A stretch of DNA of 64,000 nucleotides, taken from assembly GCA_963776315.1 (NCBI GenBank), contig CAVZMJ010000015.1, positions 54,426-118,425 on the forward strand, given 5' to 3'. Every line of letters starts with the position of its first letter. The stretch's first letter is position 1. A model generated the notes under the pieces. That model did no database searches. It was not told the DNA's origin and saw nothing but the letters and a program-made list of their open reading frames with translations. Source of the stretch: an uncultured Acidobacteriota bacterium (GTDB taxonomy: Bacteria; Acidobacteriota; Vicinamibacteria; Vicinamibacterales; 2-12-FULL-66-21). This document shows positions 4,674-60,510 of this stretch, in pieces. A program made the position numbers and the translations under genes.

Positions 4674-4766
4674 CGGCTTTCGGCTTTAGGCTTCAGGCTC
4701 TAGCAAGAGCGTTCGAGATCTCGGTCCAAGCTCTGCCTAGAGCCCAGAGTCTAGAGCCCAGAGCCG
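4674..4766. repeat. Inverted heptamer-array hairpin (GGCTYTM left / YAGAGCC right) with family core
   Basis: About 4 units on each side of CAAGAGCGTTCGAGATCTCGGTCCAAGCTCTGC; between convergent genes. Confidence 0.8.
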
Positions 4767-4769
4767 TCG

Positions 4770-5258
4770 TTACCGCTTCGCGTACTCGTAGCTGGAACCG
4801 TCGGCCTTGAACGCCACGATCGAGTAGGGCCTGGCGTTGGGGCCTTCCATGCCCGGCGAGCCGATGGGCATGTTCGGGGCCGAGAGCCCGACGACGGTGG
4901 CCGGCGCTTCCTTGAGTAACTGGCGCACGACGTCGGCCGGGACGTGGCCTTCGATCACATACTTGCCCACGACCGCCGTGTGGCACGAGCGCAGGCTCTC
5001 CGGCACCTTCTGACGAGGTGCGACCCTGTCCAGTTCCGCCTGCACCATGACACTGCTGGCCATGTCGAAGCCGGCAGCCTTCATGTGATCCACCCACTTG
5101 CTGCAGCAGCCGCAGGTCGGTGTCAGGTACACCTTGGCCGCCACCGCGGCCGGTTTCGGAGCAGGCTTCGCGGGCACCGGCTTCTGGGCGTACAGCGAGC
5201 CGGATAGGCCGAGCGCCAGGACGGCGGCGGCGCACACAGCTTGTCTCGTTCGGGTCAT
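4770..5258 (-). CDS. DUF411 (CopG-like) periplasmic metal-binding protein
   Basis: PTCGCCSKW, SCHTA, YVIEGHVPA, PxMPxGSPGME; signal peptide. Confidence 0.9.
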   Translation of the reverse strand: MTRTRQAVCAAAVLALGLSGSLYAQKPVPAKPAPKPAAVAAKVYLTPTCGCCSKWVDHMKAAGFDMASSVMVQAELDRVAPRQKVPESLRSCHTAVVGKYVIEGHVPADVVRQLLKEAPATVVGLSAPNMPIGSPGMEGPNARPYSIVAFKADGSSYEYAKR

Positions 5259-5286
5259 ATCTTGATCATAGATCACGTTCGCGTTG

Positions 5287-5446
5287 CTGCTCGCGGCTGG
5301 CGGCTGGCTGTTGTTCATTCGAGCACCAAGCTGCGAGTTCGCAACCGCGACCTGCCAGCCGCGAGCCGCTCGCTCCGTGCGGTTGCCTATTAGCGGCATG
5401 GTGCTCGAATAAGCAACAGCCAGCCGCGAGCCGCGAGCCGCCAACC
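5287..5446. repeat. Inverted heptamer-array hairpin (GGCTGGC/GAGCCGC) with long inner stem and nested arm
   Basis: GGCTGGCTGTTG..ATTCGAGCACCA pairs with TGGTGCTCGAAT..CAACAGCCAGCC. Confidence 0.8.
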
Positions 5447-5454
5447 CCATCCCC

Positions 5455-7691: not shown

Positions 7692-7781
7692 GGCTCAGGG
7701 CTCAAGGCTCAGGGCTCAGGGCAAATCTTCGAGCGTGGTCTCGAAGGTTTTGCCTGAGCCTTGAGGCCTGAGCCCTGAGCC
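7692..7781. repeat. Inverted heptamer-array hairpin (GGCTCAR x4 / CTGAGCC x4) with family core
   Basis: Core GCAAATCTTCGAGCGTGGTCTCGAAGGTTTTGC. Confidence 0.9.
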
Positions 7782-9045: not shown

Positions 9046-9140
9046 AGCTTGCGGCTCGCGGCTGGCGGCTGGCGGCTGCTAGTTACCTGCAACCTGCGAG
9101 TTATCAACCGCGAGCCGCGAGCCGCGAGCCGCCAACCGCG
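9046..9140. repeat. Inverted heptamer-array hairpin (GGCTSGC / GAGCCGC)
   Basis: 4-5 units per side; core AACCTGCGAGTTATCAACCGCGA resembles the interior of the 5287 element. Confidence 0.85.
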
Positions 9141-11044: not shown

Positions 11045-11188
11045 CAGCTTCCAGCTGCCGGCTTCCAGCTTCCAGCCGCAGGGCATGCTGCTCTCTGGCT
11101 TCATCGGACGGCTAGGAGCAGGAGCTGGGGGCAGGCGATTGAGCTGAGAGCTGGAAGCGGGAAGCTGGGAGCTGGAAGCTGGGAGCCG
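11045..11188. repeat. Inverted heptamer-array hairpin (AGCTTCC / GGAAGCT) inside the operon
   Basis: About 4 units left and 6 or more right. Confidence 0.85.
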
Positions 11189-12995: not shown

Positions 12996-14047
12996 GCTAC
13001 ATCACCAAGCCCGCGCCGCGTCATCCGGCGCTGCAGAAGAACGCGCTCGGCCTGACCAGACGCGACTACGAGGGCGCAATCACCACGCTCTGCGCCGGGT
13101 GCGGGCACGATTCGATCACCGCCGCGATCACTCAGGCGTTCTGGGACCTCTCGATTTCTCCGTACAAAGTGGCGAAGCTCTCGGGAATCGGCTGCTCGTC
13201 GAAGACGCCCGCGTATTTCCTTCGCGAGGCGCACGGCCTGAACGGCGTCCACGGGAGGATGCCCGCGCTCGTCACCGGCGCCAACGCGGCCAACCGCGAT
13301 CTGATCTACATCGGCATCTCGGGCGACGGCGATTCGCTGTCGATCGGCCTCGGCCAGCTGTGCCATGCAATTCGCCGCAACGTGAACGTCCTCTACGTGC
13401 TCGAGAACAACGGCGTGTACGGCCTGACGAAAGGACAGTTCTCGGCCTCGGCCGATCCGGGCTCGCTCAGCAAGAAGGGCGAAGCCAACACCATGGGCGC
13501 CATCGACGGGTGTCTGCTGGCGCTCACGCTCGGCGCGACCTTCGTCGCGCGCAGCTTCTCGGGCGACAAGGGTCAGCTCGTGCCGATCCTCAAGGCCGGG
13601 CTTGCGCACAAGGGCTTCGCTTTTGTCGACGTCATCTCGCCGTGCGTGACCTTCAACGATCACGAGGGATCGACCAAGAGCTACGCCTACACGCGCGAGA
13701 AGAACGTCGAGGTGGTGCAGGCCGACTTCGTGCTGCCGACGGCAGCGATTACGACCGCCTACGACCCTGGCACCGTCAGTTCGGTCATGATGCACGACGG
13801 CAGCTGGGTGCGCCTGAGGAAGGTGTCGGAGGACTACGACCCGACCGATCGCGATCGGTCGTTCACCTACATTCGCGAGCGGCAGAAGGAAGGCGAGGTC
13901 GTCACGGGCCTCCTTTACATCTCACCGGATTCAAGCGACGTCCACGAACAGAACAACACGGTCGAGACGCCGCTCGCGCAGGTACCCTACGACCAGTTGT
14001 GCCCGGGGAGCGCTGAATTGGAGAAGCTCCAGCGGGGGTTCAGATAG
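12992..14047 (+). CDS. korB: 2-oxoacid:ferredoxin oxidoreductase beta subunit
   Basis: LCAGCGH, SGIGCSS, HGR, TPP motif GDGD...NNGVYGLTKGQFS; ATGA overlap with korA. Confidence 0.93.
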   Translation: MSYITKPAPRHPALQKNALGLTRRDYEGAITTLCAGCGHDSITAAITQAFWDLSISPYKVAKLSGIGCSSKTPAYFLREAHGLNGVHGRMPALVTGANAANRDLIYIGISGDGDSLSIGLGQLCHAIRRNVNVLYVLENNGVYGLTKGQFSASADPGSLSKKGEANTMGAIDGCLLALTLGATFVARSFSGDKGQLVPILKAGLAHKGFAFVDVISPCVTFNDHEGSTKSYAYTREKNVEVVQADFVLPTAAITTAYDPGTVSSVMMHDGSWVRLRKVSEDYDPTDRDRSFTYIRERQKEGEVVTGLLYISPDSSDVHEQNNTVETPLAQVPYDQLCPGSAELEKLQRGFR

Positions 14048-14123
14048 CTTCCAGCTGCCAGCTTCCAGCCAGATCTGGCCTGCTAGCGGGAAGCGGGAAG
14101 CTGGTAGCGGGAAGCTGGCAGTT
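14046..14123. repeat. Inverted heptamer-array hairpin (AGCTTCC / GGAAGCK) between convergent genes
   Basis: Seen directly; same unit as the 11045 element. Confidence 0.85.
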
Positions 14124-22677: not shown

Positions 22678-25035
22678 ATGGAATTCCGCGACTACGCCGC
22701 AAAGGAAACGGCCGCCCTGTTCAGCCGGCTGCTGGCCAGCCAGGCAGAGGCATCCGTCCAGCATCTCCGCAGTCTTCGTGACGCCCTCGACGCCGCCACT
22801 CGAGGGATAGAAGACGGCGGCTCCGCCACGCCTGAGGCCAACGAGGACGTGCAGGAGCTGATTCGCCGTCTGAACACCGCCTCCGGCACGGCCGCGAAGG
22901 TCGCGGCCCAGAAAGTCCAGAAGGAAGCGCAGGCGGTCCTCGAAGGGGTGCAGGACGAGCTCGGCCGTCAGCGCGCCGACAACGAGCGCCTGTCGGGGGC
23001 GCTCAGCGAGCTGCAGGCACACGCCGAGACACTCCGGGAACAGCTCCTGAAAGAAACCGAACGAGCCGAGGCTGTCGACCGCGATCTCGATGCGGCTATC
23101 GAGGCCCACGCGCACGTCGATGCCGCTCGCATCGAAGCAGAGGCCGAAGTCCGGAAGCAGACGGCGGCCCGCGCGGCCGCGGAAAAGGACCTCGGCGAGA
23201 GCCGCGGGCTGCTCGATGCCACGGTTGCCGACGCAGCACGGCTGTCGGGCGAGCTGGACGCCTCTCGCGGTGAGGCCACGGATCTCAACGAGCGCCTGAA
23301 CGCGGCTCACACCGCCGCCGAACAGATGCGCGCCGACTCGCAGTCCGCGCTCGAGGCCGCGCACGAAGAGCTGCGCGGCGAGCGCGAGCGTGGCGAACGC
23401 CTGTCGGCCTCACTGGTGGAAGTCCAGGCACAGGCCGACGTCCTGCTTGCGGACCTCGCCGAAGCCGAGACACAAGCCGAAGCGCACCGCGCGTCCCTCG
23501 CGGAGGCCCACGCGCAGACCGAGGCCGTCCGCGGTGAACTGGCCGGCGCTCATGGCCAGATCGATGTCCTTCGTGGCGACCTGGCCGACGCGCGCACGCA
23601 GGGCGATGCGATCCGTGGCGAGCTCACCGACGCGCACGGACAGATCGAAGGCCTTCGGACCGAGCTCACCGACGCCAGGGCTCAGGCCGAAGGGCTGCGC
23701 GCCGATCTCCGCCGGGAGACCGAGCGGGCTGACGCCGTCGACCGCGATCTCGATGCCGCCATCGAGGCGCACGCCAACGTCGACGCGGCCCGCATGGAGG
23801 CCGAAGCCGAGTGCCGCCGGCAGTCGACGGCTGTTGCGGCGGCCGAGAAGGATTTGGCCGACGTCCGCGCGCTCCTCGACGCGTCGGTCGCCCAGGCTGC
23901 GCGTCTCGGCATGCAGCTCGACGCCAACGCGGCCGAGAACGGGACACTCGCGGCGGACCTGAGCGCGGCGCATGCCGAGCTGGACGCCGCGCGCACGCAG
24001 CGCGAGGCGATCACCGCGCAGCTCGACGCCAGCCGCGCGCGGATCCAGACGCTCGAGCGCAATCAGGCCGCGAAGGAAGAGCAGGTCCGGCAGCTCGAAC
24101 GTTCGCTCGGCGAAGCCAACGATGCGGCACAGGCCCTGCGCGCGGAGTCGGGTTCGCGGCCGTCGGGCCAGGATTCTGGCGACGCGTTCGCCGATGCCAG
24201 CGCGCTGCGCGACGACGTGGCGCGGATGGGATCGCTGCTCGACACCTCCGCCCAGGCGGTCGACGAACTCGCCGACAAGACGACGGTCACCGATCTCTTT
24301 GCGGCGCTCGTGCGCCATCTGGCGGGCGAGTTCTCACGCGTCGCGCTCTTCCGGGTGAAGGCCAATCGGCTCGAGGGCGAAGATCAGATCGGCTTCGACG
24401 AGACGACGGACGTCACCAAGCTCGTGCTGCCTCTGAACGTGGATTCGCTCATCACGCGCGCGGCCAGCTCCGGCAGCTTCGAGCAGTTGATGGGAGGCGA
24501 GCTCGCCGACAGCAGCCGCGCGCCGTTCGGAGGCACTCCGACCGTCGCCCTGGCGATGCCCATTGCCTTCCAGGGCGAGACGCTGGCGGTCGTCTACGCC
24601 GACTCCGATCAGCCCGTCTCGGACCGCGGGCCCGCCGGCCACGACGCGAGCATCGGGTTCGCGAAGCTGATGGTGCGCACCGCCGGTGTGCTCCTGATGC
24701 GGCTGTCGCAGGAGCTCAAGATGCTCAACGAGCTGCGCGACTACGCGGCCATGCTTCTGCAGGAAGCGCAGGAGATGTACAGCGCCGACATCCAGGCGGA
24801 AAAGAGCGACGAAGAGCGGCGGTCGAGGCTGAAGGACACGATCGAGTGCGCGCGCCAGCTCTACGCCCAGCGCGCGGCGCTCGAGGGCTCGGCGGCGGCG
24901 ACGCTGTTCGACGATCGTATCGCGGCCGTTCTCGAGACCGACGGCGACACCACGTTCGCACGCGACCTGGCGGCCATCGCTGGGACCTCGGAGCGGCACG
25001 CAGAGCCGCGCCGCCGCAAGGCCGAAGCGTCCTAA
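22678..25035 (+). CDS. Long coiled-coil protein with internal duplication and C-terminal GAF-like plus helical domain
   Basis: Heptad A/E/L/R-rich body; FSRVALFRVK...ALAMPIAFQGETLAVVYAD GAF-like segment. Confidence 0.75.
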   Translation: MEFRDYAAKETAALFSRLLASQAEASVQHLRSLRDALDAATRGIEDGGSATPEANEDVQELIRRLNTASGTAAKVAAQKVQKEAQAVLEGVQDELGRQRADNERLSGALSELQAHAETLREQLLKETERAEAVDRDLDAAIEAHAHVDAARIEAEAEVRKQTAARAAAEKDLGESRGLLDATVADAARLSGELDASRGEATDLNERLNAAHTAAEQMRADSQSALEAAHEELRGERERGERLSASLVEVQAQADVLLADLAEAETQAEAHRASLAEAHAQTEAVRGELAGAHGQIDVLRGDLADARTQGDAIRGELTDAHGQIEGLRTELTDARAQAEGLRADLRRETERADAVDRDLDAAIEAHANVDAARMEAEAECRRQSTAVAAAEKDLADVRALLDASVAQAARLGMQLDANAAENGTLAADLSAAHAELDAARTQREAITAQLDASRARIQTLERNQAAKEEQVRQLERSLGEANDAAQALRAESGSRPSGQDSGDAFADASALRDDVARMGSLLDTSAQAVDELADKTTVTDLFAALVRHLAGEFSRVALFRVKANRLEGEDQIGFDETTDVTKLVLPLNVDSLITRAASSGSFEQLMGGELADSSRAPFGGTPTVALAMPIAFQGETLAVVYADSDQPVSDRGPAGHDASIGFAKLMVRTAGVLLMRLSQELKMLNELRDYAAMLLQEAQEMYSADIQAEKSDEERRSRLKDTIECARQLYAQRAALEGSAAATLFDDRIAAVLETDGDTTFARDLAAIAGTSERHAEPRRRKAEAS

Positions 25036-26375
25036 AGTCGTCCGATCGCAAACACGTGCTTGTCGGTGCGGATGAAGATCTGACCGTTCGAGATTGCCGG
25101 CGACGCCACGGCGCGCTCGCCGAGCGCGTTTCGGGCCACGACTTGCGGCGCGCTGCCGACCTTCAGCACCACCGTCTCGCCGTTCTCGCTCACGAAATAC
25201 ACGTGGCCGCCGCCGCCGACCGGCGAGGCCGAGAAGACGCCATCCACACGCTCCTGCCAGACGCGTTCGCCCGTGGCCGCATCGACGGCCGTCAGCACGC
25301 CGACGTCGTTCGCCATGTAGACGACGCGGTCGTAGTACAGCAGCGACGAGCAATACGGCGCGCCCGTGGCGATCCGCCAGACCGTCTGCGTCGAGGTGAC
25401 GTCGCCGCGCCCGCCGGGCTTGATCGCCATGTAGGGCCCGCTGCGATAGCCGCGGCTGGCGTAGATCACGCCCTCGTGAAAGACCGGGGACGGCACCGCA
25501 AAGCGGCTGGTTTCGCCTGTGTGCCAGAGGAACGCTCCCGTCTTCCCGTCGTACGCGTCGATGCGCTCGGTGGAGTTGACGATGACCTCGGCGCCGAACG
25601 CGCCTTCGACGACGAGCGGTGTGCTGTAGGACGATCGTCCCTGGCCGCGGTCGGCCTTCCACCGATCCTTGCCCGTCGTCTTGTCGAGGGCGAGGAGGTA
25701 CGAACGGGCCGGCTGGTCGCACAGCAGGATCAGTAGATCGCCGTAGAGCACGGGCGAGCTGCCGTGCCCCCATTGGATGTCGAAGGCGCCGTTCTCTTTG
25801 GCCAGGTGCCGCTGCCATGCCACCGCGCCGGTGCGATCGAGCGCGACGACCTGTCCGGTCCCAAACCAGGCGAACACCAGCGTGCCGTCGGTGACCGGGC
25901 TGGGCGTCGCGAGGTTGTGCTTGTCGTGCACCGGCGTCAGATCGCCTGTCGCCTCGATTCGCCGTTCCCACACGCGCTTACCGTCGGCGCGGCCGAACGC
26001 CTCGACGACGAAGTAGGTTTTCGAGGGATCGACGCCTGCGGCCGCGACGCCGAGCGCCGTCTCGCCCTGGGCCGCGGCGTCGGCGCCCTGCACGAGGCGA
26101 GGGTGGTTGCCCTCGCGCCTCACGCCGGCGCCGATCTGCGACGTGACATAGACGCGATCGCCGCTCACGATGGGCGTCGAGACGCCGGCGCCGGCAATCG
26201 GTGCCTTCCACGCGACGTTCTCGGTTGCGCTCCACTTGATCGGCAGTGTCCGGTCGGGCGCGACGCCGCTGGCGTTCGGTCCCCGCCAGTTCGGCCAATC
26301 CGCCGCAAGCGAAGCCACGCCAACCAGACAGACTCCGACGGCCGTTCCAAGCGCGAGATGTGACAGACGTTTCAT
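25032..26375 (-). CDS. Secreted PQQ-like (BamB-type) beta-propeller protein
   Basis: ADWPNWRGP, STPIV, ATPSPVTDG, ALDKTTGK.W repeats. Confidence 0.9.
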   Translation of the reverse strand: MKRLSHLALGTAVGVCLVGVASLAADWPNWRGPNASGVAPDRTLPIKWSATENVAWKAPIAGAGVSTPIVSGDRVYVTSQIGAGVRREGNHPRLVQGADAAAQGETALGVAAAGVDPSKTYFVVEAFGRADGKRVWERRIEATGDLTPVHDKHNLATPSPVTDGTLVFAWFGTGQVVALDRTGAVAWQRHLAKENGAFDIQWGHGSSPVLYGDLLILLCDQPARSYLLALDKTTGKDRWKADRGQGRSSYSTPLVVEGAFGAEVIVNSTERIDAYDGKTGAFLWHTGETSRFAVPSPVFHEGVIYASRGYRSGPYMAIKPGGRGDVTSTQTVWRIATGAPYCSSLLYYDRVVYMANDVGVLTAVDAATGERVWQERVDGVFSASPVGGGGHVYFVSENGETVVLKVGSAPQVVARNALGERAVASPAISNGQIFIRTDKHVFAIGRL

Positions 26376-27378: not shown

Positions 27379-27812
27379 CGCGGATTCACGGGTCTCACGG
27401 GGACGCGGATTACGCAGATCACGGGTTCTCACGGGACGCGGATTTCGCGGATTCTGGGTTTCACGGGACGCGGATTGCGCGGATCACGGGTTTCACGGGA
27501 CGTCGGATTACGCGGATCACGGGTTTCACGGAGACGCGGATTACGCGGATCGACGGGTCTCACGGGACGCGGATTACGCGGATCACGGGTCTCACGGGAC
27601 GCGGATCACGCGGATCAGCGTTCTACCAGACGCGAATCACACGGCACTCGCATTTCTCAGAGTGAGCGCCGAGCTCTGCGCAAGTCCGCGTGATCCGCGT
27701 CCCGTAAAGTTTTCGTGATCCGCGATAATCCGCGTCCCGTGAAACCGTGAAAACGTGATCCGCGATCCGCGGCCCGTCCATTCCCGAACGAGCCAGACGA
27801 TCCGCGATCCGG
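27379..27812. repeat. Higher-order ~32-bp tandem array (9+7+9+7) x7 with an inverted partial array
   Basis: CACGGGTYT-CACGGGA-CGCGGATTA-CGCGGAT x7 at 27387-27615; mirrored at ~27684-27812. Confidence 0.9.
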
Positions 27813-44494: not shown

Positions 44495-44542
44495 GGTCAG
44501 TCGACAGTCGCAGAGCTGATGCGAACGAGCCAACGGGTCGGT

Positions 44543-44625
44543 CACGATGAACACGATGGCACGATGGTCACGATGAACCAGGAAACGAAAACCATCGTGG
44601 TCTTCGTGTCATCGTGGCCATCGTG
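44543..44625. repeat. Inverted 9-mer array hairpin (CACGATGAA x4 / CCATCGTG x4)
   Basis: Seen directly. Confidence 0.85.
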
Positions 44626-44702
44626 GCGAAGCCGTCAGCCCGTGACTAGCTTCACTGCGTTGATCGCGGTTCGTTGAGAGTTCCAGCAGGAGGACGATCG
44701 AG

Positions 44703-46654: not shown

Positions 46655-48024
46655 GCGATCGGGTTGTTTCGCAGTCCGGTTGCAGCGTGCCTTCTGGTCG
46701 CGTTCGCGGCCATGCCGCACGACGCGGCCGCGCAAGCACGGCCGAACATCGTGCTCATCGTCGCCGACGATCTCGGTTACGGCGACCTGAGCAGCTACGG
46801 CGCGCCGGACATCAGGACGCCGAGTCTCGATCGGCTCGCGCGCGAGGGAGTCCGGCTGACCGAGTTCTATGCGAACGCGCCCGTGTGCACGCCGACGCGG
46901 GCGGCCTGATGTCGGGCCGATACCAGCAGCGCGTGCCGCTCGAACGTCCGCTCGACACCAACGCGGCGACTCCTGGCACCGGACTCGACATCGGCCTCCC
47001 GGCGACCGGCCGCTCGTTGCCGCAGCTGTTGAAGAACGCGGGCTACGCCACAGGGCTGATCGGTAAGTGGCACCTGGGCTTCAAGCCGCAGTTCCATCCG
47101 AATCGCCACGGCTTCGATTACTTCTGGGGCTATCTGGCCGGTTACGTCGATTGGTACGCGCACGTGCGCGGCGACGGTCAAGCGGACCTGTGGGAGAACG
47201 CCACAGCCGTTCGATACGACGGCTATCTCGATCACGAGCTGACGAATCGTGCTGTGGCCTTCATGTCCGAACACGCCAGCGGTCCGTTCTTTCTCGAGGT
47301 CGCGTACGGCGCGCCGCACTGGCCGTTTCAGTCTCCGCACCACCCCTCGACGGCTGTTCTGAAGAACGGCTCGATGCTCCAGCAGCCAGCGGACGCCGAT
47401 CCGCCGAGCCGCAAGGACTACGTAGAGATCGTCGAAGACCTGGATGCGAGCGTCGGGAAGATCCTCGAAGCGCTCTCGGCGCGTGGCCTCGCTGAGAAGA
47501 CGCTCGTCGTGTTCGTGAGCGACAACGGCGGCGAGTGGCTCTCGCGCAACGCACCCTTCTTTCACCGGAAGGACACGGTGTGGGAGGGCGGCATTCGCGT
47601 GCCGGCTATCTTCCGCTGGCCGGCCGCGTTGCCGGCCGGCCGGACACTGTCGCAGGTGGGCATCACGATGGATCTCTCGGCGACGTTCGTCACCCTCGCG
47701 GGCGGTTCGGCCACGGCGAACCGGCTCGAGGGCATCGATCTCCTGCCGATGCTCCGCGGGACGGCGCCGTCTACCGAGCGGACGCTCTTCTGGCGCGTCG
47801 GCGCGGCGCCGGGTCAGCCGCGCGCCGTGCGGAGCGGCGACTGGAAGCTGATACTCGACGGATCGAAGCAGCTGCTGTTCGACGTCAGCCGCGATCCGGG
47901 AGAACGCGAGGATCTCGCGGCGCAGCATCCGGATCGTGTGCGGGCACTGAAGGGGATGATCGAAACCTGGGAGAAGGACGTCGACTCTGAAGCGGCGGCG
48001 GCGTCAGGCCGGGTGCCACGTTGA
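46651..48024 (+). CDS. Cys-type sulfatase (secreted), indels at ~46662 and ~46905
   Basis: [21 protein letters not shown] FGly motif, GKWHLG, SDNGG, EGGIRVP. Confidence 0.9.
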
Positions 48025-49655
48025 CCGCGCCAGCGCCCGGACTTCGCTGGTGGCCCGCGGCGCTGATTGCGCTCGCGAGCGCTTCCGCGCTCGCCTGGGT
48101 CTGGTTGCCAGACGGCGGCGACCGACAGGAACGGGTCCTGTCCACCTTCCCGATCGTGTTCGCGACGCTGCTGCTCCTCGCGACCTGGCTGATCTTTTTC
48201 TCACGATTGTCACGAAACCACCGTCGCTGGGCGACTGGCGCTGTTCTATTGACGGTCGTCCTCTCCGCGGCGACGACTCGAATCCGCGGCGTCACCGGCG
48301 ATCTCGTCCCGATCGTCGAGTGGCGCTGGGCGTCGCGCGTGGCGCCCGCGCTCCCGCCGGTGCCGACGCCTGACGCGCCCGCGGCGGCCGTCGCCCCATC
48401 CGTGGCCGTGCCGTCGAGCACGCCCACTCCGGCGAGCGAACCACTTTCCCCAGTCCCCTCCGCGGTTCCTGTTCCCGCGGACGCGTCGATCTCCGCTGGC
48501 GAGTATCCGCAATTCCTCGGCGCGCAACGCGACGGTTCGGTCACCGGCGTTCGTCTGGCCGACGACTGGGCGGCCCGGCCTCCACGCCTCGTCTGGCGGC
48601 ATCGCATCGGGGCGGGATGGTCCGGATTCGCGGTGGCTCGAGGCCTTGCGGTCACGCAAGAGCAGCGCGGCGCTCGAGAGATGGTGGTCGCGTACAACCT
48701 CGCCGACGGCACCCCGAAGTGGTCGCACGGAGATGAGGCGCACTACGAGTCCACGATTGCCGGCGAAGGCCCTCGAGCAACGCCGACGATCTCAGACGGG
48801 CGAGTCTTCACGCTCGGGTCGACCGGACTACTCAACTGCCTCGATCTGGAGACTGGCAAAGCGATCTGGCGACGGGACATTGCCGCTGACAATAAGTCGC
48901 CCCAGCCCGACTGGGGCCGGAGCAGCTCGCCCCTCGTCGTCGACGATCTCATCGTCATCAGCGCTGGTGGGGCGACCGGGCGATCGCTCGTCGCCTATCG
49001 CCGCGATACGGGAGAGCCAGCCTGGCACGCCGGCGACGACAGTGCCAGCTACAGCTCGCCGGTGCTGGCAACGCTCGCCGGCGTGCGGCAGATTGTCGTG
49101 CTCAACCAGGCGAGCGTCGCCGGACACGATCCGGCGACAGGCCGCGTGCTCTGGAATCATCCCTGGCCGCGATCGGCTCCGACCGTCGCGATACCGCTCG
49201 TCCTCCCGGAGAGTCGCGTCCTCCTCTCCGCCGGGTACGGCGTCGGCAGCCGGCTGCTGCAGATCTCGCAGGATGGTGACGCTCTCAAGGAGAGCCTCGT
49301 CTGGGAGAGCACGCGCCTCAAGGCCAAGTTCACCAATCCGGTTCACTCCGACGGTTTTGTCTATGGCCTCGACGATGGAGTCCTCGTGTGTTTGGACCCG
49401 TCAAGCGGCGAACGCCGGTGGAAGGGTGGCCGATACGGCCACGGCCAGACGGTCCTCGTCGGCAATCGTCTGCTCGTGCAGACGGAAGACGGCGACATCG
49501 TGCTCGTCGACGCGAGTCCTGACGCGCATCGAGAGCTCGCGCGATTCACGGCCTTCTCGCAGAAGACATGGAATCCGCCCGCGCTCGCCGGTCGCTTTCT
49601 GGTCATCCGTACTGATACAGAGGCGGCGTGTTACGAGTTGGCGGGGGAGTCGTGA
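48021..49655 (+). CDS. Membrane-anchored PQQ-like beta-propeller protein
   Basis: 3 N-terminal TM segments, Pro/Ala linker, YPQFLG..RDG, GPRATP, SSSPLV, TWNPPALAG. Confidence 0.88.
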   Translation: MTAPAPGLRWWPAALIALASASALAWVWLPDGGDRQERVLSTFPIVFATLLLLATWLIFFSRLSRNHRRWATGAVLLTVVLSAATTRIRGVTGDLVPIVEWRWASRVAPALPPVPTPDAPAAAVAPSVAVPSSTPTPASEPLSPVPSAVPVPADASISAGEYPQFLGAQRDGSVTGVRLADDWAARPPRLVWRHRIGAGWSGFAVARGLAVTQEQRGAREMVVAYNLADGTPKWSHGDEAHYESTIAGEGPRATPTISDGRVFTLGSTGLLNCLDLETGKAIWRRDIAADNKSPQPDWGRSSSPLVVDDLIVISAGGATGRSLVAYRRDTGEPAWHAGDDSASYSSPVLATLAGVRQIVVLNQASVAGHDPATGRVLWNHPWPRSAPTVAIPLVLPESRVLLSAGYGVGSRLLQISQDGDALKESLVWESTRLKAKFTNPVHSDGFVYGLDDGVLVCLDPSSGERRWKGGRYGHGQTVLVGNRLLVQTEDGDIVLVDASPDAHRELARFTAFSQKTWNPPALAGRFLVIRTDTEAACYELAGES

Positions 49656-49693
49656 CGTGCGGCTCGATGTTGGTGGGCTCGCCGCCCGCCGAT

Positions 49694-49803
49694 CCGGCTC
49701 AGGGCTCAAGGCTCAGGGCTCAAGGAAGATCTTTCAGATCCCAATCGCCGGCTGAGAGCTCAAGGCTCTTGCCTGAGCCGGCGCGGCCCTGAGCCATGAG
49801 CCT
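49694..49803. repeat. Inverted heptamer-array hairpin (GGCTCAR / CTGAGCC), expanded core in reverse orientation
   Basis: Reverse complement of core begins GCAAGAGCCTTGAG. Confidence 0.8.
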
Positions 49804-49850
49804 GGCCCCCCGGTAAGCATTCAGCTGGGCCAGCCGGTATAGGTACAGGC

Positions 49851-51185
49851 ATGCCCGATACGTCGCAGGTCGCCGACCTCGAGCAGACCGAGGTCGGCAG
49901 CTATTTTGTCGCGAATTACCCGCCATTTTCGGTCTGGACGCCCGGTGCCGTCGCCACGGATGCGAAGGCCGCGCTTGCTTCGCCGGCCCGGCCCGAGATA
50001 CCGCTGGGGGTGTACCTGCACATCCCTTTTTGCCGTAAGCGCTGTCATTTCTGCTATTTCCGGGTGTACACCGACAAGAACGCGAAGGAGGTCGAGCAGT
50101 ACCTCGACCTGCTGGGGCGCGAGTGGGAGCTCTACGCGGGTCAGCCTGCGCTGGCTGGGCGGCCGTTCAATTTCGTGTACTTCGGTGGCGGGACCCCCTC
50201 GTTTCTGTCGACGCGGCAGCTGGAGACGCTCGTCAAACGGGTCACTGCGAGCCGGTCGTGGGAGACCGCCGAAGAGATCACATTCGAGTGCGAGCCCGGC
50301 ACGATTACTCGTCCCAAGCTGGCGGCGATCCGCGGCATCGGCGTCACGCGGCTCAGCCTCGGCGTCGAGAATTTCAGCGATCGCATCCTCGAGCTGAACG
50401 GCCGCGCGCACCGTTCGCCGGAGATTACGCGGGTCTACAAAGAGTCCCGTGATCTGGGCTTCCCTCAAATCAACATCGATCTCATCGCGGGCATGCTCGG
50501 CGAGACCGATGAGAACTGGGCGGACTGCATCAGGCGCACGGTCGATCTTGCCCCCGACAGCGTGACCATCTACCAGATGGAGCTGCCCTACAACACGACA
50601 ATCAGCCGGGACCTGCTGAAGCACGGCGGCCAGTTCGACGAGCCCGTGGCGCAGTGGTCCGTGAAACGGCGCTGGGTGGCCGAGGCGTTCGAGGCGCTCG
50701 AGCGTGCCGGCTACACCATCGGCAGCGCCTACACGGCGGTGAAAGATCCGGCGAAGACGCGGTTTCTCTACCGCGACCGTCTGTGGCAGGGCGCCGACAT
50801 GGTCGGGCTCGGCGTGGCGTCGTTCGGCCACATCAATGGTGTGCACGTGCAGAACGTCGATACGTGGGAAGCCTATAGCGCGGCGATCGCCAGGGGCGAG
50901 ATTCCCCTCGGCCGCGCCTATCGCCCCACGGCCGAGGAGCGGATGATCCGCGAGTTCGTGCTGCAGCTCAAGCGCGGATCCGTGCGTCCGGCGTATTTCG
51001 CCGGCAAGTATGGCGTCGACGTGCGCGAGCGTTTCCGCGACCAGTTGACGTCGCTCGAGAAAGCCGGCTTGCTGGCACGTGCCGGCGACGACGCAATCGC
51101 GATCACGCGTGAGGCGCTGCTGCGCGTCGACACGCTCCTGCCGCGGTTCTTCCTCCCGCAGCACGCGGGGATCCGATATACGTAG
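49851..51185 (+). CDS. HemN-like (class C) radical SAM enzyme
   Basis: YLHIPFCRKRCHFC (CX3CX2C), YFGGGTPS, RLSLGVE, NIDLIAG. Confidence 0.9.
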   Translation: MPDTSQVADLEQTEVGSYFVANYPPFSVWTPGAVATDAKAALASPARPEIPLGVYLHIPFCRKRCHFCYFRVYTDKNAKEVEQYLDLLGREWELYAGQPALAGRPFNFVYFGGGTPSFLSTRQLETLVKRVTASRSWETAEEITFECEPGTITRPKLAAIRGIGVTRLSLGVENFSDRILELNGRAHRSPEITRVYKESRDLGFPQINIDLIAGMLGETDENWADCIRRTVDLAPDSVTIYQMELPYNTTISRDLLKHGGQFDEPVAQWSVKRRWVAEAFEALERAGYTIGSAYTAVKDPAKTRFLYRDRLWQGADMVGLGVASFGHINGVHVQNVDTWEAYSAAIARGEIPLGRAYRPTAEERMIREFVLQLKRGSVRPAYFAGKYGVDVRERFRDQLTSLEKAGLLARAGDDAIAITREALLRVDTLLPRFFLPQHAGIRYT

Positions 51186-51278
51186 GGCTCAAGGCTCAAG
51201 GCTCAGGGCTCAGGGCTCAGGCAAAACCTTCGAGCGCACATTCGACGCTCTTGCCTGAGCCCTGAGTCGCTGAGCCCG
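51186..51278. repeat. Inverted heptamer-array hairpin (GGCTCAR x5 / CTGAGCC x3) with family core
   Basis: Core reverse complement GCAAGAGCGTCGAATGTGCGCTCGAAGGTTTTGC. Confidence 0.9.
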
Positions 51279-51291
51279 ACTATCAGCGTCT

Positions 51292-52614
51292 ATGTCCATG
51301 TCCATGTCTTCATCCAACTACGATGTCGTTGTCATTGGTGGCGGTCCGGCCGGGTCGACCACGTCGACACTGCTGGCCCAGCACGGCTTGAAGGTGGGGT
51401 TGTTCGAGCGGGAGACGTTTCCCCGGTTCCACATCGGCGAGTCGCTCATCCCGGAGACGTACTGGGTTCTCAAGCGGCTGAACATGCTGCCGAAGATGCA
51501 GCGCAGCCACTTCGTCAAGAAGCACAGCGTGCAGTTCGTCAACGCGAACGGGAAGTTGTCGGCGCCGTTCTACTTCTGGGACAACAAGCCGCACGAGTGC
51601 TCGCAGACCTGGCAGGTGGTGCGCAGCGAGTTCGACCAGATGATGCTCGACAACGCGCGCGAGCACGGCGTCGAGGCCTTCGACGGCGTCCACGTGGTCG
51701 ACGTCCTGTTCGAAGGCGATCGAGCGTGCGGAGTGCGCATTGCCGATAGGAACGGCCGGCGCGACGTTCGGGCACCGGTCGTAGTCGATGCGAGCGGGCA
51801 GGCGGCGCTGCTGCAGAACCGGTTCAAGCTGCGGCTGTGGGATCCGATGCTGAACAAGGGCGCCATCTGGACCTACTGGCAGGGGGCCTATCGAGACACC
51901 GGCCGCGACGAGGGCGCCACGATGGTGCTCCAGACCGTCACGAAGAACGGCTGGTTCTGGTACATCCCGCTGCACGACGATATCCTCAGCGTCGGCGTGG
52001 TGGCGCCGTTCGACTACCTGTTCAAGGGGCGCAACGGGCACGAGCAGACCTATCACGAAGAAGTCGAGCGCTGCCCGGTCGTCAAGGACCGCGTCTCGAA
52101 GGCGACGCGCGTCACCGGCCATTTCGCCACACGTGACTACTCGTACCGTGCGAAGGAAGTGGCGGGCCACGGATGGGTCCTCGTCGGCGACGCCTTCGGC
52201 TTTCTCGATCCGCTCTATTCATCGGGCGTGCTGCTGGCGCTGCGATCGGGCGAGATGGCGGCCGACGCGATTGCCGAAGGATTGAAGGTGGGCGACGTGA
52301 GCGGCGCCCAGCTCGGGAAGTGGGGCGCGGGCTTCAACGAGGGCGTGGATCGCATGCGCCGGCTCGTGTGCGAGTACTACAACGGCTTCAGCTTCGGTGG
52401 GTTCGTGCGGCAGTATCCCGAGCTACGCGGCACGGTGACCGACCTCCTCATCGGCGACTTGTTCACGAACCGCGTCGACAAAGTGTGGGGACCGATGGAA
52501 TCGCTGTACGGTCCGGAACACAAGACCATTCCACCCTGGCACGCCGGGACGACGCCGGAAGAGGCCGGGAACAAAGCCAACGAACTCGTGCTCCCCGACG
52601 GCCGACGGCCGTAG
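51292..52614 (+). CDS. Flavin-dependent halogenase-family oxidoreductase
   Basis: GGGPAG, FPRFHIGESL, FVKK (candidate catalytic Lys), WFWYIP (WxWxIP), GDAFGFLDPLYSSG. Confidence 0.85.
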   Translation: MSMSMSSSNYDVVVIGGGPAGSTTSTLLAQHGLKVGLFERETFPRFHIGESLIPETYWVLKRLNMLPKMQRSHFVKKHSVQFVNANGKLSAPFYFWDNKPHECSQTWQVVRSEFDQMMLDNAREHGVEAFDGVHVVDVLFEGDRACGVRIADRNGRRDVRAPVVVDASGQAALLQNRFKLRLWDPMLNKGAIWTYWQGAYRDTGRDEGATMVLQTVTKNGWFWYIPLHDDILSVGVVAPFDYLFKGRNGHEQTYHEEVERCPVVKDRVSKATRVTGHFATRDYSYRAKEVAGHGWVLVGDAFGFLDPLYSSGVLLALRSGEMAADAIAEGLKVGDVSGAQLGKWGAGFNEGVDRMRRLVCEYYNGFSFGGFVRQYPELRGTVTDLLIGDLFTNRVDKVWGPMESLYGPEHKTIPPWHAGTTPEEAGNKANELVLPDGRRP

Positions 52615-52619
52615 GGCAG

Positions 52620-52829
52620 GGCTCTCGGCTTTAGGCTGCTCTAGACTCTCGGCTCTAGCAGAGCGTTGATTACTTGGTCCGAGGTTTTGGCTAGAGCCCA
52701 GAGCGAGAAGCCAAGAGGCCCAAAGAGTGGGCTCAAGGCTCAGGGCTCAGGCAAAAAACTTTTGACCACATACTCGAAGATCTACTGCCTGAGCCCTGAG
52801 CCCTGAGCCGGCGAGCGGCGAGCCGGCGG
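52620..52829. repeat. Two back-to-back inverted heptamer hairpins (GGCTCTM type, then GGCTCAG type), cores in opposite orientation
   Basis: Cores GCAGAGCGTTGATTACTTGGTCCGAGGTTTTGG and (reverse complement) GCAGTAGATCTTCGAGTATGTGGTCAAAAGTTTTTTGC. Confidence 0.85.
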
Positions 52830-52843
52830 ACTGCTGTGAGACC

Positions 52844-54031
52844 GTGCAGCAGCTGAAGCTCGGCATCCAGGACTCGGCGCCCGAGCGCGTCTGGTTTGCC
52901 GACGTGTCCGTCGACGATTCCCAGAGGCCAGCAGCTCGGTTGTCGGATTTCCAGGATCGACTTCGTCTGTATCTCGAATCGATGTCCGGCGTCGAGTCGG
53001 TGGGGCTGAGCTCCGGCCGGCCCCTTTCGTCCATTCGCCGCGGCCCGCTCCATGTCGAGGGCATGACGAGTGTTCCCGACAGCAAGCCGATGCCGTGGGG
53101 TCCGCCGCCTCCGCCGCCGCCACGCGGGGCGATCCGCCTCGAGAAGCAGTGGATTGTGAGTCAGAACTACGTCACGCCTGGGTACTTTGCCGCGCTCGCG
53201 CTGCCGATGCGCCAGGGCAGAGATTTCACGAGCGCCGACGGCGCCGGCAGCCCCCGCGTCGCGATCGTCAACGAGACGCTCGCCGCGCGTGCGTTCGGGA
53301 AGTCGAGCCCGATCGGACGCCGGGTGTCGTTCGCAAAGCCCGGTACGTTCGACATCGAAATCGTGGGCGTCGTGCGTGACCTCCGTTACGAACACCTGCG
53401 GGAGGCGGCGCCAGACGGCATCTTCTTCCCGCTCGCGCAGATCCCGCGCGGCGAGGACGAATCGCCGACTGCCAGCGGCGGGACCGAACCGATCAATCTG
53501 ACGCTCATCCTGCGCGCGCGACACGACGAGCGCATGACGCGTGTTCGGCTCCTGCAGCACGCGGTCCAGTTCGATTCCGGACTCTTCTTCGACAGAATCG
53601 CGACCTTCGACGAGGAGGCCAACGATGCCCTCGGCCAGGAGCGGGTGCTTGCCTCGGTCGGCTCGATCCTCGGCGCGGCGGCGCTGGTGCTGCTCGTCAT
53701 CGGCCTCTACGGCACGATGGCCGCTGCCGTCATTCGCAGCCGACGGGAGATTGGGATTCGGCTGGCGCTTGGCGCCCGCCCCCGCTCGCTGCGAGCGCTG
53801 GTCGTCGCGCGCGGCCTGCTCGTCGCCGGCGTTGGCCTGGGCCTGGGATTGCCGCTGGCCTACGCGGCCACGAAGTCGTTCGCGCACCTGCTCTACGGAG
53901 TCCGGCCACTCGACCCGCTCGTCGGCGCAGTCACGGTCGCCATCGTCTTTGCCACCGCAGCCGTCGCCGCGTTTGTGCCCGCCCGACGCGCGTCGCGCGT
54001 CGATCCGGTCATTGCCTTGCGCGCGGAGTGA
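52844..54031 (+). pseudogene. C-terminal half of an ADOP permease (5'-truncated)
   Basis: NYVTPGYF, GRDFT, RREIGIRLALGA, VDPVIALRAE; lacks the N-terminal TM and first repeat. Confidence 0.7.
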
Positions 54032-54048
54032 CGGCTGACGCGCGCGTG

Positions 54049-54143
54049 AAATGCTGAATGCTGAATGTTGAAGTGAATGCTGAACGAAATACTGAGACAG
54101 GGACCAATGATTCCTGATTCCGCATTCACTTCAGCACTCAGCA
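54049..54143. repeat. Inverted heptamer-array hairpin (GCTGAAT / TTCAGCA)
   Basis: Homologous to the 28752 element. Confidence 0.8.
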
Positions 54144-54170
54144 TCGAGCTCCAGCTTACACTGTCACCGA

Positions 54171-54614
54171 AGGGCCACAGAGAAAATCGATCCCGCGGAG
54201 CCGGGATTCCGCTACACACGCCGAGTTTTCTTCTACGAGACAGACCTCGCCGGCGTCGTCCACTTCAGCTGCTATTTCAGATTCATGGAGGAGGCGGAGC
54301 ACGCGCTGTGGCGCGCTGCGGGGCTCACCGTCGATCGCGCCGGCGCGGGCATCGGCTACCCGCGCGTGTCGGCGACGTTCGACTACAAGAGCCCGCTCTT
54401 CTTCGAAGATGAACTGACGATCGTCGCGCGCGTGCACGCGGTGACCAGGCGCACGATCAAGTACTCGTTCGTCTTCACCCGAGGCGACACGGCCGTGGGC
54501 ACCGGGTGGCTGACGACCGCCTGCGCCACACGCCAGGAGGACGGCTCCATGCGTTCCGTTGCGATTCCCGCCGGGGTCGTGTCATCCTTGCGCGCCGCGG
54601 CGGGGCAGAGTTGA
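54171..54614 (+). CDS. 4HBT/YbgC-type hotdog acyl-CoA thioesterase (start codon reads AGG, probably ATG)
   Basis: In frame upstream of the called ORF: FRYTRRVFFYETDLAGVVHFSCYFRFMEEAE; DYKSPL.FED. Confidence 0.85.
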   Translation, partial: RATEKIDPAEPGFRYTRRVFFYETDLAGVVHFSCYFRFMEEAEHALWRAAGLTVDRAGAGIGYPRVSATFDYKSPLFFEDELTIVARVHAVTRRTIKYSFVFTRGDTAVGTGWLTTACATRQEDGSMRSVAIPAGVVSSLRAAAGQS

Positions 54615-59333: not shown

Positions 59334-59402
59334 GAATCCTCCGTCAAACTATGGGTCGACAAGAGTCACGAGGGGTTGAGTGGTAAATGCAGGTTCAGAT
59401 CG

Positions 59403-59419
59403 ATGCAAGAGGGGGACCT
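59403..59419 (-). promoter_or_regulatory. Candidate sigma54 promoter AGGTCCCCCTCTTGCAT
   Basis: GG-N10-GC with TTGCA, 70 nt upstream of the SLATT start. Confidence 0.35.
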
Positions 59420-59559
59420 CCCCGGAAACAGGAAAGAAGTCAGGAAAGCAGCCAGAATGACTCGAGGCGCGCGACGTGCTGGCGGCGCAGCCGTGCAACT
59501 TTGCCACTGCGTTCTGATAAGTCTTGACCGGACGGCCCGAACCGGGTCAACTACTCACC

Positions 59560-60417
59560 GTGACCGAGTCTCCACAAGCTCAACCATTCACGCAACCGTT
59601 CGATGAGCGGTCGGCGCTCGAGGAGCTCGAGCAGCTCGCCGACAAGATACAGCTGTCCAGACGTCAACGGGAACAGAAGGTTGCCGAGTTCGACGATTTC
59701 GTCCGGACATTCCGTAGGGACCGCTATAACACGTCCATCGCCGCCACCGAGCGGGAGCGCCGCGCGGAAGACCGTCGAGCGGCCTCGAGCGAGGCAGCCC
59801 ACGTCGCGCGAGTTGTGGTTCCTGAGACGCAGGCGAGCACTCCACTGCCTGACGCATCCGTCGTGCCGTTGGCCAGTCTCCCGGAGAATACGGCATGGGG
59901 TGTGACCGAGCCCCGCGCGCCGGTCGCGGATGTTCGAAGGAATCGACCGGGACGGCTGCGCGCGGCTTACGTCGGCGTGACCATCGCCGCCCTTGCCGTG
60001 GTGCTGGTGACGGTGCTGTTGTGGCGGTCCGCCGCAGCCCCAGTCGGTCCCGCCTCGCAATCGGATCCTCGAGCCGTTGCGGCGACATCGACTCCACGGG
60101 CCACCCCGACCGCCGCGGCACCGGCCGCGGCTGCGCCCGCACCGACGCCGGCAGTGCCGGCAGGCCCGCCGCGCGCGCTCAACATCGAGTTCGTGACGGT
60201 CCGTCCCGTATGGGCGCGGATTACCGTCGACGGCCGGCGCGCGATGGAGCGTGAGTTCAAGGCCGACCAACGCATTCCGTTCGGTGCCGATCGCGCGATC
60301 CTCATCCGCGCCGGTGATGCCGGAGCGATTCGTCTGGTGGTGGACGGAAAGGATCTGGGAGTGCTGGGGCGCGACGGTCAGGTCTTCGAGCGGGCGTTTA
60401 CGGCGCAGGCGAAATAG
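59560..60417 (+). CDS. Single-pass membrane protein with C-terminal RodZ-like DUF4115 domain (no HTH)
   Basis: TM, Pro/Ala linker, VWARITVDG...IRAGDAGAIRLVVDGKDLGVLG..GQV. Confidence 0.8.
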   Translation: MTESPQAQPFTQPFDERSALEELEQLADKIQLSRRQREQKVAEFDDFVRTFRRDRYNTSIAATERERRAEDRRAASSEAAHVARVVVPETQASTPLPDASVVPLASLPENTAWGVTEPRAPVADVRRNRPGRLRAAYVGVTIAALAVVLVTVLLWRSAAAPVGPASQSDPRAVAATSTPRATPTAAAPAAAAPAPTPAVPAGPPRALNIEFVTVRPVWARITVDGRRAMEREFKADQRIPFGADRAILIRAGDAGAIRLVVDGKDLGVLGRDGQVFERAFTAQAK

Positions 60418-60420
60418 TGT

Positions 60421-60510
60421 GGTTCAGGGTTCAAGGTTCAAGGTTCAGGGTTCAAACAAGATCTTCGAGTGTGCTGTGGAAGGTTTTGTCTGAACCCTGA
60501 ACCCTGAACC
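60421..60510. repeat. Inverted heptamer-array hairpin (GGTTCAR x5 / CTGAACC x3) with family core
   Basis: Core ACAAGATCTTCGAGTGTGCTGTGGAAGGTTTTGT. Confidence 0.9.

Follow-up and report, generated by a model that had tools for sequence, protein, structure and literature searches.

The 23S rRNA intervening sequence (IVS) of Coxiella is a hairpin that carries an S23p (PF05635) open reading frame (ORF), has two to three strain-variable GACAGAT heptamers in the region of its stem and is cut out by RNase III; the article that describes it cites an old idea that such sequences are mobile (PMC4990558). Xanthomonas genomes each contain 70-75 convergent GGGAATC array pairs in conserved intergenic contexts, which are discussed as G-quadruplex formers (Rehm et al. 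2015, PMC4692102). For Beggiatoaceae and cyanobacteria, direct TAACTGA heptamers upstream of start codons are described, with only one inverted set among 170 in a Beggiatoaceae genome (PMC4679880), and PF05635 has been likened to Avd, a pentamer of four-helix bundles that accompanies the reverse transcriptase of diversity-generating retroelements (PMC10053308). Here we analyse mirrored heptamer hairpins in a 64,000-nt stretch of DNA (hereafter the window) from an uncultured Acidobacteriota bacterium of the Vicinamibacterales (assembly GCA_963776315.1, contig CAVZMJ010000015.1, positions 54,426 to 118,425), seven of which had been singled out in an earlier note made from the sequence alone. We hold with moderate confidence that these hairpins are gene-less relatives of IVS-type PF05635 palindromic elements, comparable to MITEs (miniature transposable elements with inverted repeats), and that their arms are homogenised by slippage and conversion.

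Mirrored heptamer hairpins and their PF05635-bearing relatives

Inspection of the sequence bore out both the positions and the anatomy given in the earlier note for the seven elements, which begin at 4674, 7692, 49694, 51186, 52620, 52730 and 60421: in each, 3-5 tandem heptamers are followed by 31-50 nt of centre and then by the reverse-complement array. None of the seven loops, at 31-50 nt, contains an ORF, and a Rfam scan of the window at gathering scores gave no match. According to gene calls from a crude caller based on third-position G+C, all hairpins of the window lie between genes and mostly touch a stop codon, and the hairpin at 60421-60510 occupies the entire gap separating two convergent stop codons.

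The home genome is a 7.2-Mb draft of 29 contigs (labelled with C-numbers below) with 66% G+C, in which 7 is the most frequent tandem period (1745 rows in the output of Tandem Repeats Finder). It contains 1421 non-overlapping period-7 arrays of at least 2.7 copies, and 268 of them lie inside gene calls, although gene calls cover 80% of the genome. Adjacent period-7 arrays no more than 120 nt apart are inverted in 358 cases and direct in 19, and the pattern GGCTCARGGCTCAR occurs 397+379 times, compared with 1+6 times for a reversed control; mirroring of heptamer arrays is far beyond chance. Restricting the set to mirrored heptamer arrays with a centre of no more than 120 nt left 370 hairpins after de-duplication, so that the total is at least 370, with a mean length of 111 nt and a mean RNA minimum free energy of -68.5 kcal/mol. 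These hairpins are predicted to fold very stably on either strand.

As judged from sequence, full-length members of the group appear to carry in their loop a PF05635/TIGR02436 gene, which would encode the four-helix-bundle '23S rRNA intervening-sequence protein' related to Avd. The earlier note had mentioned such a link to TIGR02436 genes, and it proved right. The home genome has six TIGR02436/PF05635 matches, one with an internal stop and none in the window, and the protein is identified by TIGR02436 with 108.7 bits and by PF05635 ('23S rRNA-intervening sequence protein') with 111.5 bits. All six genes lie between mirrored arrays, five heptameric and one of 8-mers, and the arm units of the six loci are all different (AGCTTCC, GGCTCAG, GGGCTCG, CAGTCGG, GGTTCAG and GGTGCC-type). 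In five congeners, 18 of the 21 PF05635 loci examined, among 27 matches listed, have arrays of period 7-10 on both sides. Beyond the genus we used one genome per species and a single-protein query; 568 of 600 candidate stretches encode a relative, and among the best 80 of these 568, which come from many phyla, mirrored arrays flank the gene at 39 loci (36 of them with period 7) and an array is present on at least one side at 69. A looser BLAST survey of PF05635 homologues gave the same picture of flanking arrays.

Gene-bearing and gene-less copies can be tied to each other in two ways. The GAAGTGG family has defined outer ends, and two copies with a PF05635 gene share exactly these ends with three copies that lack it. 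On contig C3 of the home genome, an element with the gene and GGCTCAG arms has inner ends that resemble two of the core families described below, B and C, and its orthologous site, in the genomes of the genus (labelled with G-numbers), holds a gene-bearing element in G002, G003, G010, G001 and G007, a split one in G004 and a degraded one in G006. The gene is lacking at this site in G012, which has a 146-nt hairpin instead, in G005, where 171 nt of GGTTCA-type repeats lack a clear right arm, and in G008, which has other DNA there. Because of the shared termini and the alternation of gene and hairpin at the C3 site, the gene-less hairpins may stand to the gene-bearing elements as MITEs stand to full transposons, with the qualification that the PF05635 gene of the long copies does not, by its sequence, belong to a known transposase. 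Since an ORF is present only in the six long relatives, the copies in the window are gene-less relatives and not full IVS-type members. We also considered whether each unit family has its own PF05635 paralogue. This is suggestive at home, where five of the six flanking units are among the abundant gene-less families, but G012 (89% complete) does not fit, since it has 240 GGCTYTN dimers, yet none of its four PF05635 matches has such arms.

Modular arms and cores at orthologous sites

The hairpin centres fall into at least three conserved families, which we call A, B and C. Core A, of about 34 nt, is itself a stem-loop, to which two conserved G-T (G-U) positions give polarity, and a fuzzy pattern for it finds 65 orientable sites in the home genome. 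A covariance model (CM) of core A plus two units per side, built from 23 copies of which three are from the window, yields at least 149 matches in the home genome, some sites being matched on both strands, and matches in 11 of the 13 genomes of the genus (E <=1e-6), in keeping with the proposal of the earlier note that the copies are homologous and dispersed. Core B, a family of about 50 nt, has 48 sites genome-wide and core C has 37. In the alignment of the 23 copies, 89.4% of cells are paired over 27 pairs; 8 of the 15 pairs of the arm helix have changes on both sides, which agrees with the compensated changes pointed out before, and none of the 12 pairs of the core helix has. The arms are thus constrained to pair, and the core, whose two wobble positions persist while its loop varies, is constrained in sequence.

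By covariance-model strand scores, the polarity of the core, which the earlier note had assumed for all its elements, is real for five of the seven. The hairpin at 7692-7781, with GGCTCAR arms and core A in forward orientation, scores 66.3 bits on the plus strand and 55.7 bits on the minus strand (at 7706-7767), and that at 60421-60510, also on the plus strand, scores 75.8 bits (at 60442-60503) and has the GGTTCAR/CTGAACC unit and the AC..GT core ends described for it, the closing pair of core A having changed from G-C to A-T. Core A lies on the minus strand at 51186-51280, where five GGCTCAR units on the left face three on the right (73.9 bits at 51207-51268). Two neighbours that were held out of training have opposite orientations: the degenerate hairpin at 52620-52712, with GGCTCTN arms and a diverged core A, reads on the plus strand (52644-52704, 30.2 bits against 16.5), and the hairpin directly after it at 52730-52810, with GGCTCAR arms, on the minus strand (52737-52802, 59.3 bits against 42.7). 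The remaining two elements are not assigned to a strand. At 4674-4765, with GGCTYTN-type arms and a core A-like centre, the two strands score 36.9 (plus) and 36.8 bits (minus) at 4689-4751, so that no polarity can be measured. The element at 49694-49805, with GGCTCAR arms, had been taken for an expanded form of the same core; the core A model gives it 20.6 bits, and its centre of about 50 nt belongs to core B.

GGCTCAG arms (for example at 7692-7722 and 51186-51221) can also be read as GGGCTCA, and four or more such units form G3-N4 tracts that fit a G-quadruplex pattern, which the A variant interrupts. Judged by unit sequence only, G3 tracts are present in the GGGCTCA, GGGTTCA and GGGATCA units and absent from AGCTTCC, AATGCTG, GGCTCTA and CAGTCGG.

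Arms and cores vary independently of each other. The mean Hamming distance between copies of core A is 7.28 for 544 pairs with the same unit and 7.26 for 537 pairs with different units, the unit class differs in 8 of the 15 closest core A pairs, and one pair with an identical 34-nt core has different arms; core similarity is independent of the arm unit, and the elements are modules, each an arm unit combined with a core family, that reassort. Core A counts are 0 in G006 (100% complete) and G011 (66% complete), 3-8 in G008, G012 and G007, and from 78 to at least 149 in the others. Among 60 other genomes of the order there were weak hits only, in 6 genomes and at no more than 39 bits, and no hit was obtained in 3 genomes from other genera of the same family. 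On these searches core A appears to be confined to the genus.

The C3 locus documents a change of unit around an inserted gene. The orthologous PF05635 gene has GGCTCAG/CTGAGCC arms in G000, G002, G010, G001 and G007, and in G003 its left arm consists of GGCTCTA/GGCTTTC and its right arm of TAGAGCC/TAAAGCC, while flanks and gene align throughout at 80-90% identity. Here the arm unit changes together on both arms around a vertically inherited insert.

We compared 14 slots of the window with the syntenic DNA of three congeners, which gave 30 comparisons with both anchors present that were classified manually. Unit and core are both kept in 8 of the 30. The core is kept and the unit changed in four, namely the slots at 7675 (in G002 and G003), 49656 (in G003) and 60418 (in G005), with the same core orientation in all of them, and the unit is kept and the core changed in one (49656 in G002). 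The rest comprise 12 slots with a different mirrored array, two with palindromes like repetitive extragenic palindromic (REP) elements, one with a one-armed array and two that are empty. At the site of the 7692 element, core A keeps its orientation between GGCGCTC arms in G002 and GGCTCTA arms in G003, and at that of the 60421 element, core A of G005 is flanked by GGCTCTA arms, its orientation unchanged. The site of the 49694 element holds core B with GGCTYTW arms in G003 and core A with GGCTCAR arms in G002. The 51186 element is the same in G002, with 4+4 units compared with 5+3 in the window; its site has GGGATCA arms and another core in G003, G004 and G005, and GGTTCAR arms with a short loop in G012. 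The G003 slot syntenic to 49656-49850 is 1018 nt long; in it, a gene (an extra ORF of about 230 codons) lies between a core B hairpin and another hairpin, whose arms are GGGATCA.

Presence and absence differ between relatives in both directions, as would be expected from the mobility proposed in the earlier note. The sites at 4666 and 9045 are filled in the window and empty in G002; the first is that of the 4674 element, which has an orthologue in G003 and is replaced by 16 nt in G002. Conversely, G002 and G003 carry full GAAGTGG-family elements (208-229 nt) where the window has overlapping convergent gene ends (24990-25080), and G005 carries a full element of 173 nt with arms of the 8-mer GGTGCCAG in place of a 14-nt spacer at 30277-30292.

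Dominant units are specific to each congener. Dimers of GGCTCAR and GGCTYTN stand in a ratio of 776:336 in the home genome, 750:60 in G002, 407:1 in G007, 194:429 in G003, 79:147 in G005 and 6:240 in G012, and both classes are near zero in G006 and G008. The arms match the prevailing unit of the host genome at the C3 locus and in the core-kept, unit-changed cases of G003 or G005, an observation from few sites in related genomes that are not independent.

Metagenome contigs from four DNA runs cover window positions 48000-54500 as short fragments, with depth peaks in several bins, some of them repeat-containing, and mixed-sequence loose ends adjoin the 51186 element in the comparison of these contigs. 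Peaks and loose ends fit dispersed copies in related organisms and are uninformative on processing or polymorphism.

The count of seven in the earlier note was too low, since Tandem Repeats Finder lists further mirrored arrays at nine other places in the window, none of them assigned to a strand. The same architecture with another unit occurs at 5289-5441 (GCTGGCG-type arms at 5289 and 5422, long centre), and GCTGGCG/CGCGAGC-type arms at 9047-9140 (arms at 9047 and 9108) occupy the site that is empty in G002 and filled in G003. The CAGCTTC/GAAGCTG element at 11045-11186 (arms at 11045 and 11141) is the same in G002 and is replaced by a 9-mer hairpin in the slot of G003, and AGCTTCC arms with a short loop lie between convergent genes at 14046-14118 (arms at 14046 and 14085). 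Where the window has TGCTGAA/TTCAGCA arms (28752-28827, arms at 28752 and 28802), congeners have long GAAGTGG-family elements, and where it has a mirrored hairpin of the 9-mer CACGATGNN (44543-44627, arms at 44543 and 44592), G002 and G003 have REP-like palindromes. The AATGCTG arms at 54050-54140 have the same unit in G005, and G003 has GGCTCTA arms and core A there. Compound mirrored arrays of GGCTCGC/GCTGGCG-type units are found at 62355-62538 (arms at 62355 and 62520). The block at 27379-27790 contains 7.5 tandem units of 33 nt (CGCGGATCACGGG-type) with reverse-complement pieces about 100 nt later, and thus has the mirrored-array build at a far longer period.

Outside the window, a hairpin with GGCTCAR arms and core A lies in or beside the rRNA operon at C9:271711-271800, with some 560 nt between it and an end of the 23S rRNA gene (C9:272364-275354). 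In a ribosomal-protein cluster at C12:33840-41257 (S8-, S13- and S11-like by translation), successive spacers contain AGCTTCC/GGAAGCT arrays that pair across genes.

Proposed arm turnover and the weighing of explanations

The home genome has about 50 unit types, of which GGCTCAR is the commonest, followed by AGCTTCC, AATGCTG, GGCTCTN and GGTTCAR. Over the 370 hairpins, left and right copy numbers correlate with a Spearman coefficient of 0.15; the arms differ by at least one unit in 201 hairpins and by at least two in 114. The order of variant units is weakly mirrored (115 of 185 elements lie above the unit-shuffled mean, median z 0.71), and even this figure is generous, since the shuffle control also penalises arrays with indels. 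The arrays are mosaics of one-step variants, several of them with a 14-nt super-period. The weak copy-number correlation, the weakly mirrored order, the one-step mosaics and the super-periods argue for independent slippage in each arm. The switch of unit on both arms at the C3 locus bears out part of what the earlier note proposed. Its re-synthesis from one unit with mirroring is not supported in the sense of whole arms copied from each other, given the weak copy-number correlation and the weakly mirrored order, and fold-back copying of whole arms finds weak support in that order.

In the reading that we favour, each arm would grow and shrink separately by replication slippage, and unit variants would spread inside an arm through slippage turnover. 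The two arms, and likewise the dispersed copies, would be kept alike by conversion of short tracts or by template switching, in either case between arms that are complementary or homologous, and selection against unpaired stems would help to keep the arms matched. Cores A, B and C would be lineage-specific passengers of the loop, exchanged by conversion with the shared arms as homology. When transcribed, the hairpins would, by analogy with the IVS, be double-stranded RNA substrates of RNase III or 3'-end protectors, and not U-tract terminators, and the elements would mainly be selfish or neutral occupants of permissive slots. The earlier note had argued for a copying mechanism of the elements' own, and this we do not follow, since none of the findings calls for anything beyond slippage, conversion and selection for pairing.

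Several observations weigh against this explanation. Neither slippage nor conversion would predict the polarity of the arms: among 5'-arm units of the home genome, weighted by copy, GCT is contained in 84% and AGC in 20%, and in the 5' arms of the 36 period-7 PF05635 loci of other phyla AGT outnumbers ACT by 17 to 3, GTT AAC by 13 to 0 and CAG CTG by 12 to 1. The replacement of an arm by ectopic conversion needs homology on the outer side, and unique flanks give none. Of the 23 copies of core A, 21 retain one of the two G-T (G-U) positions and 17 the other while the loop varies freely, and as conversion between arms should erase such mismatches, the core owes its conservation to something besides pairing. 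Some palindromic repeat is present in 27 of the 30 orthologous slots, compared with about 10% of 3'-side intergenic regions genome-wide, and with occupancy so near constant a hairpin could be needed there, in which case the elements would not be merely selfish. Finally, the analysis turned up neither an enzyme nor a target-site duplication or transposition intermediate. More active or functional readings stay alive through the polarity of the arms, the conserved sequence of the core and slots that are almost always occupied.

The 5' arm is G/T-rich throughout the home genome and the cross-phylum PF05635 loci, and such polarity suggests a process with a direction, in which a protein recognises the arms or synthesis runs one way. 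The latter could be active templated synthesis of the arms by a dedicated machine at insertion or repair, for example one that adds heptamers, much as at telomeres, to each 3' end of a break, with the PF05635 pentamer as specificity or accessory factor and possibly a reverse transcriptase in trans. The likeness of PF05635 to Avd, a reverse transcriptase accessory protein (PMC10053308), would suit such a process, and so would the three reverse transcriptase genes of the home genome. It would account for the same unit being present on both arms always, for the fixed polarity, in which the G/T-rich strand on either side reads 5' to 3' in the direction of the centre, as 3'-end extension would produce, for unequal and uncorrelated copy numbers as expected of two independent additions, for a dominant unit specific to each genome and for the association with PF05635 across phyla. 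Some 50 unit types in one genome, however, are not explained by any single template, and the abundant GGCTYTN dimers of G012 have no counterpart in the arms of its PF05635 loci. The one-step mosaics and 14-nt super-periods are what slippage gives, and ordinary terminal inverted repeats read by a protein would be expected to show such polarity just as well. To our knowledge, no such biochemical activity is known for PF05635, which also counts against templated synthesis, and overall we judge this explanation improbable.

A wider form of the idea would make PF05635 elements a pan-bacterial class of mobile DNA whose heptamer arms arise or stay uniform through templating directed by a protein, which might for instance add G/T-rich heptamers to each 3' end where the element inserts. 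We rate this proposal, too, as improbable. If it were true, it would explain together the fixed arm polarity, the identical units on both arms and the genome-specific units; the 23S rRNA IVS, the GGGAATC pairs of Xanthomonas and perhaps the heptamers of cyanobacteria would all belong to a single system, and a protein family that has been an orphan for 30 years would have a testable function.

The occupancy of slots bears on another alternative, in which the hairpins are selected by the host as RNA structures after genes (terminators without a U-tract, 3'-end protectors or RNase III sites) and owe their similarity to convergence and conversion, not to mobility. Hairpins occur in 94 of 889 convergent (10.6%), 199 of 2407 co-directional and 41 of 956 divergent (4.3%) intergenic regions, and the median distance from their edge is 5 nt to an adjacent stop codon and 36 nt to an adjacent start codon. 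This preference for convergent regions and for abutting stop codons is what selection of this kind would produce, as are the covarying arm pairs and the palindromic repeats that persist in orthologous slots even where unit, core or repeat class differ. Against it stand the 41 copies between divergent genes and the range of core A from 0 to more than 100 copies among congeners, with G006 and G008 almost without either unit class tested; conserved cores, conserved termini and gene-bearing versions, moreover, indicate descent by copying. The orientation of core A is random with respect to transcription, being the same as that of co-directional flanking genes in 18 cases and opposite in 17, and the fold energies of the 370 hairpins show no consistent strand preference, which together are evidence against a strand-specific RNA role. 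A structured RNA, as entertained in the earlier note, is for now rejected in its strand-specific form, and the window's lack of Rfam matches points the same way. TTTT tails come after 14 of 740 hairpin ends and 43 of 3821 background positions, which likewise speaks against host-selected hairpins and led us to reject canonical intrinsic terminators. We consider host selection unlikely, if somewhat less so than templated synthesis.

With respect to mobility enzymes, the earlier note was correct that the window encodes no cognate enzyme, as the hits to TIGR02436, Y1_Tnp and reverse transcriptase all lie on other contigs. The genome has two Y1_Tnp genes besides its reverse transcriptase genes. By eye, no flanking direct repeat was seen at five elements with defined termini, and the pairs of empty and filled sites are too diverged for base-by-base alignment. 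A third alternative, that the hairpins are REPIN-type elements moved by a RAYT (a Y1/HUH transposase) encoded elsewhere in the genome, would fit palindromic, intergenic elements in hundreds of copies for which no target duplication was seen, and one of the two Y1_Tnp genes, IS200/RAYT-like and located at C10:79947-80651, does lie between mirrored tandem arrays. These arrays, however, are 11-mers, GGGGTCAGACC, with four copies upstream and 4.4 copies of the complement downstream (C10:79855-80891), and do not belong to the heptamer families; they suggest a second kind of small gene in a tandem-armed hairpin build. Near the second Y1_Tnp gene the listing shows only a 13-mer array, so that neither of the two is a RAYT gene flanked by heptamer repeats, and a RAYT as mobiliser finds no support. 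A GTAG head is the hallmark of REP elements. It is absent from the heptamer arms, and a separate REP-like family that has it (GTAGTGTCCGGCTnnAGCCGGAC-type, sometimes in tandem, 78 palindrome hits in the home genome) is the likelier client of a RAYT. Across phyla, furthermore, the gene that accompanies heptamer arms is PF05635 and not Y1_Tnp. We regard mobilisation by a RAYT as very unlikely. Palindromes of the REP-like type with a GTAG head also occur in G002 and G003 in the slots of window positions 44495-44702, 14040-14123 and 60418-60510.

The gene-less, MITE-like reading brings together two old loose ends, the over-representation of heptamers in bacteria and the role of the IVS/S23p family, through PF05635 genes that lie between mirrored heptamer arrays of common arm polarity in many phyla. 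The genus offers a natural experiment, with 13 genomes that range from 0 to more than 100 copies, differ in prevailing unit and include orthologous sites at which only the arms have changed, and it allows the rate and mode at which dispersed palindromes evolve in concert to be measured. For annotation, much of what lies between genes in such genomes, and many of their contig breaks, can be put down to the hairpins.

Comparison with known systems

A search of full-text literature, with subscription journals and supplements outside its reach, found no account of PF05635 with mirrored heptamers, core families or unit switching. Among published cases, the nearest are the inverted heptamer pairs of Xanthomonas and the heptamers in the IVS of Coxiella. 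Of the described repeats, the TAACTGA heptamers resemble those studied here in being intergenic, tandem and present in many copies per genome, and their other strand contains CAGT, the commonest 5'-arm tetranucleotide across phyla; they differ in forming direct arrays upstream of start codons and not mirrored pairs. Tandem heptamer repeats of cyanobacteria are known as short tandemly repeated repetitive (STRR) sequences.

REP elements are reportedly short intergenic palindromes that occur in hundreds of copies near gene 3' ends and show lineage-specific bursts. With REP elements and REPINs and their RAYTs, the hairpins share the short, intergenic and palindromic form, the hundreds of copies and the position near gene 3' ends; they differ in lacking the GTAG head, in having arms of tandem units and in the absence of a RAYT flanked by heptamer repeats. 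The resemblance to MITEs lies in the terminal inverted repeats, in gene-less copies that share their termini with gene-bearing ones and in sites that are filled or empty between congeners, whereas the gene of the long copies is PF05635 only and no known transposase, each arm is itself made of repeats and the arms change in concert, and no target-site duplication was seen at five elements with defined ends. Unlike Avd, the PF05635 genes of these elements have no adjacent reverse transcriptase and no template/variable repeat pair, the three reverse transcriptase hits lying elsewhere.

The GGGAATC pairs of Xanthomonas, as presented in the accessible sections of their description, come close in several respects, being intergenic convergent heptamer pairs with a gene context conserved between species, with variation in length and sequence and with the G-rich strand in the 5' arm; a conserved core, a link to PF05635, unit switching or a cross-phylum view is not described in those sections (PMC4692102). 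The G3 tracts for which these pairs are discussed recur here in the GGGCTCA and GGGATCA units.

From the 23S rRNA IVS with an S23p/PF05635 ORF, of the Coxiella and Leptospira type, the present elements differ in that they are intergenic, mostly gene-less and present in hundreds of copies, with long arrays and many unit types. The 23S rRNA gene of the home genome itself has no large insert, because its 2991 nt span 2925 model positions. What the IVS and these elements have in common is a long terminal inverted repeat that forms a stem around a PF05635 gene, and the six long elements of the home genome are built exactly so.

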